Of a DNA stretch of 15,775 bases, positions 6,001-9,000 are shown one piece after another. Origin of the DNA: a virus (taxonomy: Duplodnaviria > Heunggongvirae > Uroviricota > Caudoviricetes); the IMG/VR virus record IMGVR_UViG_2703718860_000028, positions 1 to 15,775 of that record; one strand, 5' to 3'. The position numbers were made by a program. The first letter of the stretch is position 1. Each line of letters opens with the position of its first letter.

Positions 6001-9000
6001 GTGATGAAATCTGTGACAGGGACGTCACGACATATCGCTCATATTTCACGAGAAAATACACAGTTCTTGGAGGGTATACTATGCAATTTAAAGATTTACC
6101 AGCGGATATTCAGAAAATAGCTGCGGATACGCTTAAAGCCCATTTATCGGTGCTTGATTTAACAAAGGAACCAAAGGCGAATCTGGAAAATATATCCCGT
6201 AACGTGCGAGATGTTTTTGTCGGGCTGTATGCTTATGGCAATGAAAAGCACGAGGAACATATTCAAAATGGTTGCATTAATAAATTTCAACAAAATATCA
6301 AACTTCCTGTTGCTGATAAAACAGAGCAGAAAACAGAGGTATTAGTATTCTGGAATACCGTTGAGGCTATCGCCAGGAGCACGATGTTGGAGTTTAACAA
6401 CATCAATCATTCAGGGATCGACACTCATCAATCATCACATCGTGAGGGGTTTTCCATTCTTCTAACTCTGTTACAAGAGCAAGGCGAATATCCTCAGCCG
6501 ACATCAAACGACACTGAGCAATAGTCCATTCTCGTACGCTGCAACGTGAGGTCGTACCCCGGACACGGGTAAACATCCGGCAATTCCAGCTTACCACCTA
6601 TTTAACCCCCTCCCCGTAACGAGACGAAGAAATGAGCACTCATCATGTTGTGAGTTTTTCAGGCGGTCGGACATCGGCGTACCTCGTCCACCTTATGGAG
6701 CAACGCAGAAAAGCTGGTGAAAACGTTCATTACATACTCATGGATACGGGATGTGAACACCCGCTGACGTACCGATTTATTCGGGAGGTTGTGAAGTTCT
6801 GGGATATTCCGCTAACCGTGTTGCAGGTCGATATAAATCCAGAGCTTGGGCAGCCAAATGGTTATACGGAATGGGAACCAAAGGATATTCAGACGCGAAT
6901 GCCGGTGCTTAAACCGTTTATGGACATGGTAAAAAAATATGGCACGCCATACATCGGCGGCGCGTTCTGCACTGACAGATTAAAACTCACCCCCTTCACA
7001 AAATACTGCGATGACCATTTCGGACAAGGGAACTACATCACGTGGCTGGGTATTCGTGCAGACGAACCCCGTAGGCTGAAACCGAAACCGGGCATCCGGT
7101 ATCTTGCCGAGCTGTCAGATTTTGATAAGTCGGATGTTATCCGGTGGTGGCGAAAACAACCTTTTGATTTGCAAATCCCGGAGCACCTCGGGAACTGTGT
7201 TTTCTGCATCAAAAAGTCAACGCAAAAGCTGGGGCTTGCATGTAAAGACGAACCTGGTCTGATGCGGGTTTTTAATGAACTGGTTACAGGCAAACACGTC
7301 AGGGATGGTCATCGCAGAACAGGTAAAGACGTTATGTACCGTGGCCACCTGACGCTTGACGGGATTGCCAGAATGTATGCCGACAGCGACTACAGAAATT
7401 TGTATCAGGCGATGGTGCAGGCCAAGCGATTCGATACCGGCTCGTGTTCAGAGTCATGTGAAATCTGGGGTGACCAATTGGAGTTGAAATTCGAAGAGGT
7501 AGTGGCATGACAATCGTAAAAACCCATACCGGCATTGTGATCACCAAAGACGGCCCGCAGGTAAAAAAACTTCACCAGACAGAGCGGATGTGGGTCGTCG
7601 GCAAAAACGAGTTTTACCACAAAGAAACCGGACGCCGCCACTTTGCAGAAAATACGCGCCGCAGACTGCTGATCGACACAATCAAGCCTGTCGAGGTGAA
7701 GCATGTTTAAACAGAACGAAAAATCTATCGCTCAAATTGCTGAGTATATCCCGCGTACGTGCCGGGGTATGCAGTTGCAGGAAGCCAAAGCGCGCCTGGA
7801 GAAAAAAATTGCGCTCTATATCGATGACGGCTGTGATGCTGCCGTTCTTAACGCGGCTTTCGCACCAGCTCTTAACTGTCATACGCGGGAATCTTTTTTT
7901 TCGTGCATCGCAGCGCAGCTCCACAAAGGAGGCAACCAGTGAGCAAGATTGACTATCAGGAACTGCGTGAAAAGGCAGAGAAAGCAACTAAAGGAAGCTA
8001 CATCGTAGGGCATACATCTGTTAACCAACACGGCAATTTAACAGGAGTTTTTGTTTGCCAAAAATGGAAAGGAGAACCCGGTGGCGTGATTGCAGAATGT
8101 CATGTTAACTGCCTGGTTGAAACAGATGCTCAGGCTTACGCAAACGCTGAATTTATTGCTGCCTTTAATCCAAATGTTGCGCTGGCACTGCTGGATGAAC
8201 GGGAAAGAAACCAGCAATACATCAAACGCCGCGACCAGGAGAACGAGGAAATTGCTCTTACGGTTGGGAAGCTGCGCGTTGAGCTGGAAGGCAAAGACAA
8301 GCTGATTGCAGAGCTTGGAAAACAATGCGCCGAATGGGAGCGAAAAGCATTAAGCGACTTTGAAGAGTGTGCTGCGATGGCTGAACGTATCGAAGAGTTG
8401 CAGACAAAATCTGCACCAGATTCGTTTGGCATCATCGGTGAAAATATTCGAACACAGGATAATCGAATAACGTCAGACCCTATGTTTTGTGTGTATCAAA
8501 AGCGCGAAATCGTTGTTGATGCTGATTATGACTATGACCGGATTGTCTGGGTTGATGAAGATGGCAATGAAGCCAATAAACGCCAAAGTCGTCGTCTCGA
8601 ACTACTTCACGAAAACTTTCGAGAGCCACCAGAAAAATGGCGGCGCGTTGCTGTGAAAGATATTGATGAATTCGTTACCTGCTGTTTCACCGAACAGGGT
8701 TGTAAAGACTACCTGGCAGCCAATGGTCACAATCTTCGCTTGCCATTTATATATGTAAAAAGCGGTTTCAGGAACGCTGAATATATCGGCATAAGAAACT
8801 GGCTTGCTGGCATTCGCATCAAAGGAGAGTGAGATGACCACTATGAACAGAGAAGAACAAAAGCAAGTTCTCATAGATACAGCTAATCACGTAATCAATC
8901 GTGATAATACTTCACCATATAGCGAAAATCTTAGGGAACTGGCACGAATTGCACTGGCATCACTGGCAGCAGTATCGGATGAACGAGCAGCCTATGAATT

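Follow-up and report, generated by a model that had tools for sequence, protein, structure and literature searches.

A lambda NinC orthologue in the early-left region of a Stx prophage as a candidate phage counter-defence enzyme

The locus and its operon

The element that houses the genes considered here is a Stx-converting Sepvirinae prophage, represented by the window, i.e. the whole 15,775-nt stretch of DNA that was analysed. Inside its early operon are three overlapping ORFs specifying products of 292, 67 and 79 amino acids, and then an Ea22-like gene (Table 1), an arrangement described in an earlier note and borne out by the ORF listing and by the gene junctions. The order of the operon around ninC, the first of the three, is kil, gam-like, RecT, exonuclease and DUF2303, later Ea22, DUF551 and antirepressor, and later again MT-A70 and int. 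The same context is annotated in the early-left region of phage PA2, at 98.4% identity. Within this pL-side early-left operon ninC is between DUF2303 and a 147-aa ORF (orf147) on the one side, and the orf67/orf79 cassette followed by Ea22 on the other.

Table 1. Genes of the ninC locus and sequence motifs of NinC, with positions in the window
Feature	Position	Codons	Strand	Remarks
ninC orthologue, 292-aa stand-alone PP-loop (PAPS-reductase-like) enzyme	6632..7510		+	ATG start
PP-loop (ATP pyrophosphate-binding) motif SFSGGRTS	6653..6676	8-15	+	S10, G11, G12, R13 and S15 invariant in 36 family members
CVFC, invariant CxxC	7196..7207	189-192	+	With C113 and C126, putative ligands for Fe-S or sulfur relay
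GSCSESCE, conserved cysteine pair on disordered C-terminal tail	7439..7462	270-277	+	
orf67 (phrog_1226), 67-aa small five-stranded beta-barrel protein, first cassette gene	7507..7710		+	ATG start
orf79 (phrog_1344), 79 aa, second cassette gene	7703..7942		+	ATG start; phrog_1344 E=3.5e-53
Ea22-like gene (context only)	7939..8832		+	GTG start; PF13935 Ead_Ea22 E=4.7e-32

As read off the sequence, the junction of ninC with orf67 is ATGA, a 4-nt overlap, and that of orf67 with orf79 is an overlap of 8 nt. The orf79/Ea22 junction is GTGA, the true start of the Ea22-like gene being the GTG at 7939, which overlaps the orf79 stop. For every downstream start of the locus there is a GAGG or AGGAGG Shine-Dalgarno sequence within the preceding gene. 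The translational coupling that the earlier note suggested is consistent with these overlapping stop/start junctions and internal Shine-Dalgarno sites. No promoter-like or terminator-like site above shuffled expectation was found in 5900-8300, which fits an internal position within a long operon. All three ORFs are real genes under purifying selection: dN/dS is 0.055 for NinC against its lambda counterpart and, from comparison with the mEp460 and Klebsiella phage copies, 0.13-0.20 for orf67 and 0.07-0.32 for orf79.

Identity of the 292-aa protein

Judged by its sequence, the gene for the 292-aa protein is orthologous to ninC of bacteriophage lambda. The product of the lambda gene that is flanked by ninB and ninD is 80.2% identical to the window protein over residues 5-292 (tblastn), and a profile search matched residues 2-291 to phrog_424 with E=6.4e-93. 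The gene already carries the name NinC or PAPS reductase family in public records of these phages; the window gene belongs to a known family and has been annotated before. The earlier note had placed the protein in the PAPS-reductase family, and it does score above the gathering threshold of PF01507, but the note had missed its orthology to NinC. Literature searches on NinC yielded listings of genomes or of gene essentiality, but no study of its function.

Whereas lambda has ninC in the nin region, the Stx prophage has it, relocated, in the early-left (ea) accessory region. The window copy is outside the nin location proper (between P/ren/ninB and Q) and relatives are found in both the nin and ea regions; that location names the gene and does not define the protein family. 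DNA identity between the window and lambda genes is only about 77%, and the move was not a recent transfer.

Motifs, cysteines and fold

NinC has the Rossmann-like alpha/beta fold of the adenine nucleotide alpha-hydrolase type. Its PP-loop is a variant of the SGGxDS type, with Thr in place of the usual Asp; at the same alignment position CysH and APS reductase have SSSFGIQA and SFSGAE, respectively (HMMER alignments). Four cysteines, C113, C126, C189 and C192, are invariant across 36 family members and, by analogy with DndC, APS reductase and TtuA, are candidate ligands for an Fe-S cluster or for sulfur relay. In the C-terminal motif, C276 and E277 are invariant in the same 36 proteins, and G270, S271, C272, E274 and S275 are at least 90% conserved. 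The predicted structure has pLDDT <50 for residues 266-292, and this Cys-bearing tail may resemble the mobile one of CysH and the Cys dyad that DndC possesses in addition to its three-Cys [4Fe-4S] site. The 'conserved cysteines' of the earlier note hold for six residues (the four above, C272 and C276) but not for C41, which is not conserved.

In relatives down to 49% identity, SGGRTS, a DTG motif, R142/D144/E145/R148, K194/K195 and the six cysteines are invariant or nearly so. This conservation, together with the low dN/dS, speaks for NinC being an enzyme and not a relic. In a structure search of BFVD, all matches were viral proteins of PAPS-reductase or QueC-like type, with generic names or none.

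Place among PP-loop enzymes

The Pfam PAPS_reduct model (PF01507) scores 34.7 bits against a gathering score of 22.5, though only residues 5-72 are involved, aligned to profile positions 2-66 of 175. The curated models for CysH are failed by a wide interval (NF002537, 22.6 bits against a cut-off of 154; TIGR00434, 16.1 against 165). Similarity to the sequences of solved CysH/APR structures stops at about residue 100. CysH has its catalytic Cys in a C-terminal ECG[LI]H motif; the C-terminus of NinC reads ...DTGSCSESCEIWGDQLELKFEEVVA, and no ECGLH is present.

For the NinC family, matches to the PADLOC models of SspD, BrxP and DndC are stronger than those to CysH. All 36 family members match SspD (best 6e-18), 31 match BrxP and 8-10 match DndC. 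The window protein matches SspD with E=9.1e-15, its residues 4-148 aligning with positions 1-121 only of the 277 in the profile, and it scores 17.2 bits against the 290.4 cut-off of the DndC equivalog TIGR03183. As between a DndC-like and a CysH-like enzyme, the profiles come down on the SspD/BrxP/DndC side for the N-terminal half. The catalytic half of NinC is closest to these three proteins, which place sulfur in the backbone of DNA, and by the same profiles NinC is not a CysH. CysH-type sulfate assimilation was ruled out by curated model scores, motifs and gene context. DndC or SspD proper was likewise ruled out, as the N-terminal half alone matches and the partner genes are absent. The earlier note had favoured nucleic-acid or nucleotide modification over sulfate assimilation. 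Its rejection of assimilation stands, and modification of DNA is the favoured reading on what the sequences suggest.

Gene neighbourhoods and methyltransferase fusions

The neighbourhoods of 84 NinC loci are in keeping with that earlier preference: the gene is always within early accessory regions, DNA methyltransferases recur as its fusion partners or neighbours, and none of the 84 has a cys (sulfate-assimilation) gene beside it. An Ea22-like gene directly follows NinC at loci L011, L012 and L024, and a Dam gene adjoins ninC at L026, L031, L042 and L043. In relatives the NinC domain is fused, at either end, to phage Dam (PF05869), and in others to a D12-class methyltransferase (PF02086). At one further locus (L059) a C5-methyltransferase, NinC and Dam form a triple fusion, a single 968-aa protein. 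Such fusions recur, involve three families of DNA methyltransferase and place NinC either before or after its partner. The window NinC ends at residue 292 with no methyltransferase domain, and the closest methyltransferase in the window is the MT-A70 gene, 5.6 kb downstream of ninC.

In known phosphorothioation systems the enzyme depends on a P-loop ATPase (DndD, SspC or BrxC) and on a protein that recognises or nicks DNA (DndE or SspB), and a cysteine desulfurase often goes with them. No DndD/DndE, SspB/SspC, BrxC/PglZ or desulfurase gene was found beside NinC in the window, PA2, lambda, SE21, Chi, the Vibrio phages or 80 IMG/VR loci.

A link to escape from Dnd

Transfer of two genes of Vibrio phage 44E38.1, p0018 and p0019, into a sister phage gave escape from the Dnd system of the host (Piel et al. 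2022; 10.1101/2021.05.05.442762). The product of p0018 (P0089) is 56% identical to the window NinC over 281 aligned residues (E=4e-111). The escape phenotype was obtained with the whole PAPS-Dam fusion and p0019 jointly, and is not assigned to the PAPS domain alone (10.1101/2021.05.05.442762). JSS1_004, the other anti-Dnd factor in the literature, is a kinase/shutoff protein of the T7 gp0.7 kind and is unrelated to NinC.

Proposed function and its rivals

The reading that we prefer, at about even odds (a probability of roughly 0.5), is that NinC, a relocated lambda orthologue, is a PP-loop counter-defence enzyme that modifies phage DNA against Dnd/Ssp-type restriction. What we infer of its ATP use, Fe-S binding, sulfur transfer, DNA substrate and E. 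coli target defence system is as follows. NinC would be expressed early, most likely from pL, and would bind ATP through its SGGRTS loop. Its cysteines, comprising a probable Fe-S site of C113, C189 and C192 and the pair on the flexible C-terminal tail, would take up sulfur, probably from host IscS. The phage DNA that it modified would no longer be seen as foreign by phosphorothioate-dependent (Dnd/Ssp-type) restriction.

DNA as the shared substrate is favoured by the fusion of three DNA methyltransferase families to NinC, in both orders and once as a triple, and a counter-defence role by the presence of its homologue p0018 within a two-gene segment that confers Dnd escape. However, DNA modification is a weaker reading for the restriction of SspD/DndC similarity to the N-terminal half, for the absence beside NinC of the partners that known phosphorothioation needs, and because the methyltransferase fusions may only bring separate anti-defence domains together in 'polyvalent' proteins. 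To our knowledge lambda DNA from E. coli K-12 has never been reported to contain phosphorothioates or odd bases, and we know of no phenotype of the nin5 deletion of lambda on that host. Any modification by NinC must, therefore, be host-conditional or subtle.

A bolder form of the proposal, which we consider unlikely, is that NinC is a minimal, single-polypeptide DNA sulfur-modification enzyme. ATP and the persulfide of host IscS would be all that it needed, DndD/E and SspB/C being dispensable, and it would write phosphorothioates, or a thio- or amino-base not so far described, on replicating phage DNA, so forging the 'self' mark of the host. If true, this would provide lambda ninC, an orphan ever since the genome was sequenced, with a function, and would constitute a new class of anti-restriction DNA modification.

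Counter-defence could also operate with the DNA left unmodified, a possibility that we rate as somewhat unlikely. NinC would then be a mimic of DndC/SspD that poisons or hijacks a host modification/restriction complex, or it would consume or alter a small molecule that a defence needs (a nucleotide, PAPS or the IscS persulfide), and the methyltransferase fusions would be polyvalent combinations of independent anti-defence domains. The Vibrio genetics and the gene context serve this reading and DNA modification equally well. The absence from NinC loci of the partner proteins of all known phosphorothioation systems is in its favour, as is the lack of any known modification in lambda DNA, and an identity as high as 56% between the E. 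coli and Vibrio phage proteins sits well with a host target that is itself conserved, for example IscS or a metabolite. However, invariant residues of catalytic type and six conserved cysteines point to real chemistry rather than to a passive decoy, and for three methyltransferase families, fused in both orders and even as a triple, a shared DNA substrate is the most economical explanation.

An RNA-directed PP-loop enzyme is quite improbable. Such an enzyme would thiolate or otherwise modify tRNA, as do TtcA, TtuA, NcsA and TilS, and would serve for tuning translation or for shielding tRNAs from anticodon nucleases. Profiles favour SspD, BrxP and DndC, with TilS a marginal match (E=0.009, 14.8 bits against a cut-off of 606). 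There is no THUMP, PUA or TilS C-terminal domain within the 292 aa, and the fusion partners are DNA methyltransferases and never RNA enzymes.

The earlier note took the two small genes to belong with the enzyme, and a module in which NinC, orf67 and orf79 act together, e.g. an enzyme with specificity or regulatory subunits, would suit the overlapping junctions with their internal Shine-Dalgarno sites. Of 5426 complete E. coli genomes, 222 keep the trio, as do many Stx phages. However, the pair moves independently of the enzyme, and each occurs without the other. In mEp460 orf67-orf79 follows other genes and NinC is missing; the pair likewise stands without NinC on E. coli plasmids and in Klebsiella phage ST16-OXA48phi5.1, there in the nin-like region, and Stx2a phages retain it with just the last 54 codons of ninC. 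The pair is absent from 7 of the 18 loci with NinC of at least 92% identity, and it is present at none of the 66 where identity is below 92%; lambda NinC is followed by ninD instead. Nor is the overlap distinctive, as orf79 and Ea22 are joined by one of the same kind. In mEp460 and the Klebsiella phage, too, orf79 is always beside orf67, and the two overlap by the same 8 nt. A three-gene functional module, rejected on this co-occurrence, is very improbable. orf67 and orf79 are an independent two-gene mobile cassette, unrelated to NinC and linked to it only by lambdoid-style overlaps, and lambdoid mosaicism accounts for the 'three-gene unit'.

That NinC is an auxiliary metabolic enzyme, a true PAPS/APS reductase raising sulfite and cysteine supply during infection, is hardly credible given the failed CysH models, the loss of CysH/APR similarity near residue 100, an SGG PP-loop where CysH has SSSFG, the missing ECGLH tail, neighbours that never include sulfur-assimilation genes, fusion to DNA methyltransferases, and the possession by E. 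coli of its own cysH.

Implications

NinC relatives are widely annotated as 'PAPS reductase', and in virome studies are often counted as auxiliary metabolic genes for sulfur assimilation. We argue that this label is probably wrong for the family, in view of the failure with CysH models, the retained PP-loop, the SspD/BrxP/DndC-like half, the fusions to three kinds of methyltransferase and the identity to a domain implicated in escape from Dnd. On those sequence grounds the family would be placed among the DNA-modification enzymes of phage counter-defence. Genetic work is practicable in both lambda and Stx phages, and Dnd and Ssp systems function when cloned in E. coli. Given the connection between NinC and p0018, direct tests are therefore within reach both for what NinC does and for how the Vibrio phage anti-Dnd factor works.

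Comparison with known systems

The resemblance of NinC to CysH and APS reductase is confined to about the first 100 residues. It differs from them in retaining the SGG PP-loop, in lacking ECGLH, in failing their models and in its genomic context. SspD, DndC and BrxP are the best profile matches to its N-terminal ATP-pyrophosphatase half and, like it, are cysteine-rich. However, the match ends at SspD profile position 121 and the DndC equivalog model is failed, and the genes for these proteins are in host defence islands while NinC is carried by phages. Vibrio phage 44E38.1 p0018 ('PAPS-Dam') is also a phage early accessory gene, and the N-terminal 280 residues of its product carry all the conserved motifs of NinC. 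In it a Dam methyltransferase is fused C-terminally, whereas the window NinC stands alone. Lambda NinC (ORF-290) has the same length, PP-loop, DTG motif, CxxC and GSCSESCE tail, with 80% identity over 288 residues. The lambda copy is in the pR-side nin region with ninB and ninD as neighbours, whereas that of the window is in the pL-side ea region, but both are non-structural early accessory genes.

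Genomic setting

The window corresponds to the early-left (pL) operon of a Sepvirinae prophage of the Stx-converting type. Phages Stx1_2409, PA2 and VT2phi_272 share 98-99% identity with it over positions 6081-8832, and over 6632-7942 a prophage of E. coli 2015C-3121 matches it at 100%. In an ORF listing the three ORFs of the earlier note lie exactly where it had put them. By gene order (taken from the PA2 annotation plus Pfam/PHROG scans), ORF6N antirepressor-like, kil, gam-like, RecT, YqaJ exonuclease, ssb-like and DUF2303 genes and a 147-aa ORF precede the large gene; orf67, orf79, an Ea22-like gene, a DUF551 protein and an antirepressor follow it, and an MT-A70 methyltransferase and an integrase form the end. 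The large gene meets orf67 at ATGA, orf67 and orf79 overlap by 8 nts, orf79 meets the Ea22-like gene at GTGA, and a Shine-Dalgarno sequence is present inside the preceding gene at every junction. No promoter-like or terminator-like sites exceed shuffled expectation within 5900-8300. All three ORFs are under purifying selection (dN/dS 0.055 for the large gene against its lambda counterpart, with ranges of 0.13-0.20 in orf67 and 0.07-0.32 in orf79).

Several other features of this arm are apparent. At 8298/8299 the PA2 Ea22-like gene is 54 bases longer than that of the window (aligned as 2 + 52), so that the protein varies in length while the frame is kept. The MT-A70 gene, which belongs to the operon of ninC and lies 5.6 kb further downstream, is intact in the window and split by an IS3-family insertion in PA2. 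An antirepressor-like gene with an ORF6N domain follows closely on each of three Rfam RNA matches, which suggests that the one arm carries two copies of an RNA-controlled antirepressor module like P1 c4/ant. The run of plus-strand genes in the operon is broken by two minus-strand ORFs, at a place where the PA2 annotation has antitoxin-like genes.

Features of the window and of compared ninC loci
Feature	Record	Position	Strand	Remark
sRNA-Xcc1 match	window	783-866	+	Rfam gathering-level, 79.6 bits
ORF6N antirepressor-like gene	window	905-1579		
Large gene (ninC)	window	6632-7510	+	292 aa
orf67	window	7507-7710	+	67 aa, phrog_1226
orf79	window	7703-7942	+	79 aa, phrog_1344
Ea22-like gene, start	window	7939		GTG
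Minus-strand ORF	window	11072-11353	-	
Larger minus-strand ORF	window	11398-11838	-	ParD/RHH antitoxin domain, E=4.9e-7
isrK match	window	11745-11818	+	Rfam gathering-level, 53 bits
C4 antisense RNA match	window	11844-11927	+	Rfam gathering-level, 70.1 bits
ORF6N antirepressor-like gene	window	11980-12657		
MT-A70-family DNA methyltransferase	window	13141-13767	+	intact
RefSeq NinC CDS	L001 (PA2)	8615-9430		AS349_gp24
Four tRNA genes	L008 (Vibrio phage 91E28-1b)	1971-2298		strand opposite to ninC-like gene
Distant NinC relative	L008	2962-4032		insertion after GIRADEP
Distant NinC relative	L087	4968-6065		insertion after GIRADEP
NinC domain fusion	L054	3579-6053	+	824-aa ORF
C5-cytosine MTase (PF00145)–NinC–Dam (PF05869)	L059	3576-6482	+	single 968-aa ORF, three-enzyme polyprotein

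Identity and spread of the large gene

In a tblastn search of phage genomes, lambda is 80.2% identical to the large gene over residues 5-292, and the matching gene of the lambda imm21 record lies between ninB and ninD, downstream of O, P and ren, the place of ninC. By sequence, then, the large gene is identified as lambda NinC. The Stx-phage gene is named ‘NinC’ in the GenBank records of PA2, PA8, VT2phi_272 and ArgO145 and ‘phosphoadenosine phosphosulfate reductase’ in RefSeq, so that it was already an annotated member of a named family (phrog_424, E=6e-93). As a stand-alone early accessory gene it is found in the nin region of P22-like phages such as SE21, in phage Chi (‘ninC-like’ gp42) and in Vibrio phages by the hundred; approximately 1550 cluster representatives match at E<=0.001, and 109 at E<=1e-30. 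A full-text literature search found no functional study of NinC.

The RefSeq CDS of PA2 begins at internal Met22 and omits the PP-loop; the open frame runs upstream to a MSTHHVVSFSGGRTS start identical to that of the window. Erosion of ninC is recurrent. One related protein, the 294-aa chimera P0020 (on 20 contigs), joins NinC residues 1-230 to a DUF551 C-terminus, and in a group of Stx2a phages (LC727844.1 and relatives) only the last 54 codons persist, before orf67. Many distant representatives have a ~50-80-residue insertion directly after GIRADEP, near residue 150 (seen as two matched stretches in the representative search).

Fold and conserved residues

The AlphaFold model (pLDDT 86.8) is confident except for the C-terminal tail, 266-292. 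Its fold comparison scores are 12.2 with APS reductase 2goy, 11.9 with PAPS reductase 6vpu, 11.8 with both TilS and [4Fe-4S] LarE, 11.6 with NcsA and 11.3 with TtuA; the modelled fold by itself thus does not point to one substrate. Across 36 aligned relatives, at 49-93% identity, the conserved residues are S10, G11, G12, R13 and S15 of the PP-loop SFSGGRTS, D38, T39 and G40, R142, D144, E145 and R148, and K194 and K195. The conserved cysteines claimed earlier are borne out for C113, C126, C189, C192 and C276, which are invariant, and for C272, present in at least 90%, but not for C41. The C272/C276 pair (GSCSESCE) is on the disordered tail.

Methyltransferase fusions and a homologue implicated in Dnd escape

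NinC domains occur joined to DNA methyltransferases in a number of independent arrangements: NinC–Dam (PF05869; proteins P0085, P0089, P0108, P0121, P0127 and P0158, loci L050-L052, L055, L061 and L062), Dam–NinC (P0124, P0126), NinC–D12-class (PF02086; P0128) and the polyprotein of L059. A Dam gene directly adjoins ninC in four further loci (L026, L031, L042, L043). Such recurrence, involving three methyltransferase families and either order of domains, makes a strong guilt-by-association case that links NinC to the enzymes marking phage DNA against restriction. The fusions fall short of proving that NinC acts directly on DNA; independent domains are known to be combined in polyvalent anti-defence proteins. 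In L054, ~475 N-terminal residues without a Pfam match are fused to a NinC domain.

One fusion of 479 aa, P0089, corresponds to p0018 of Vibrio phage 44E38.1 and is described as a ‘Dam methyltransferase with PAPS reductase domain’; over its first 280 residues it shares 56% identity with the window protein. Together with the adjacent p0019 it constitutes the only genes specific to phages infecting Dnd-carrying Vibrio crassostreae, and transfer of the two into a sister phage, which leaves the contributions of the domains unseparated, gave full infectivity on a Dnd+ (retron-deleted) host (Piel et al. preprint, 10.1101/2021.05.05.442762). A 2026 paper cites Piel et al. as evidence that Dnd evasion is promoted by a phage PAPS reductase. 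JSS1_004, the other anti-Dnd factor that has been characterised, is a kinase/shutoff protein unrelated to NinC.

Proposed role and its alternatives

The most likely reading of NinC is a stand-alone PP-loop enzyme, expressed early and dependent on ATP, whose conserved cysteines, probably an Fe-S site and a mobile Cys pair, would transfer sulfur, and whose most likely role is counter-defence against phosphorothioate-dependent restriction, probably by modification of the phage DNA. That it uses ATP is inferred, as are its cofactor, its source of sulfur, its substrate and the system that it targets in E. coli. One counter-argument is that lambda DNA from K-12 is not known to carry a modification of this kind, nor nin5 deletions to show a phenotype in K-12; any NinC activity must be conditional on host.

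Also against this reading, known phosphorothioation requires partner proteins that NinC is without, and the homology to SspD-type enzymes is limited to half of the protein. That NinC is instead a non-modifying inhibitor, or is directed at a metabolite, has a minor but real chance, the methyltransferase association notwithstanding. A tRNA-directed PP-loop enzyme is improbable; four tRNA genes ~700 bp from the ninC-like gene of Vibrio phage 91E28-1b were noted in this regard.

The earlier note had presented the two small genes together with the enzyme, as translationally coupled. Despite the overlapping junctions, a functional three-gene module is very improbable and is unsupported, as the pair occurs without NinC and NinC without the pair. 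With an identical 8-nt overlap orf67 and orf79 travel together after SfV-p29/p30-like genes in mEp460, after replication genes and before a methyltransferase in Klebsiella phage ST16-OXA48phi5.1, alone in E. coli plasmids and chromosomes, and behind the 54-codon ninC remnant of the Stx2a phages. Where NinC is at least 92% identical, 7 of 18 loci lack the pair, with Ea22 or other genes directly next; it is found in none of the 66 loci with more distant NinC, and lambda NinC is followed by ninD. Such overlaps are the usual lambdoid mosaic joints, a like one connecting orf79 to Ea22, and the ea-region placement and neighbours of NinC reflect mosaic shuffling.

A CysH-like auxiliary metabolic gene is hardly credible. 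Membership of the PAPS reductase family holds to the extent that Pfam PAPS_reduct is above threshold over residues 5-72, but NinC is far from passing the curated CysH models (22.6 vs 154 bits and 16.1 vs 165 bits), and its C-terminus lacks ECGLH, the CysH motif. The earlier note had likewise suggested a role other than sulfate assimilation.

Comparison with known sulfur-handling systems

In HMMER alignments CysH and APS reductases have SSSFGIQA or SFSGAE at the position of SFSGGRTS, and their likeness to NinC stops near residue 100. With the CysH model failures and the missing motif, this rules out a PAPS reductase in the enzymatic sense, and ‘PAPS reductase / sulfur AMG’, a label in wide use, is arguably misleading for the family.

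The proposed separation of DndC-like from CysH-like by HMM gave neither, the DndC equivalog being missed also (17 bits vs a cut-off of 290): of the defence-system models, the N-terminal half is nearest SspD (E=9e-15, residues 4-148), then DndC and BrxP, PP-loop enzymes by which sulfur is put into the backbone of DNA. SspD is matched by all 36 relatives (best 6e-18), BrxP by 31 and DndC by 8-10. However, the SspD match of NinC is confined to profile positions 1-121 of 277, and the obligatory partners of such enzymes (DndD/E, SspB/C, BrxC/PglZ or a desulfurase) are near NinC in none of the 84 loci examined. On these grounds NinC falls outside the three families, with a catalytic half that resembles theirs. 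What is added here is the explicit connection of lambda NinC with that SspD/BrxP/DndC-like half, with fusions to methyltransferases and with the anti-Dnd factor of the Vibrio phage; no surprise to specialists, it makes an old orphan gene testable. DndC is described with a three-Cys [4Fe-4S] site and a Cys dyad thought to relay sulfur, and the six conserved cysteines of NinC may be compatible with a similar arrangement.
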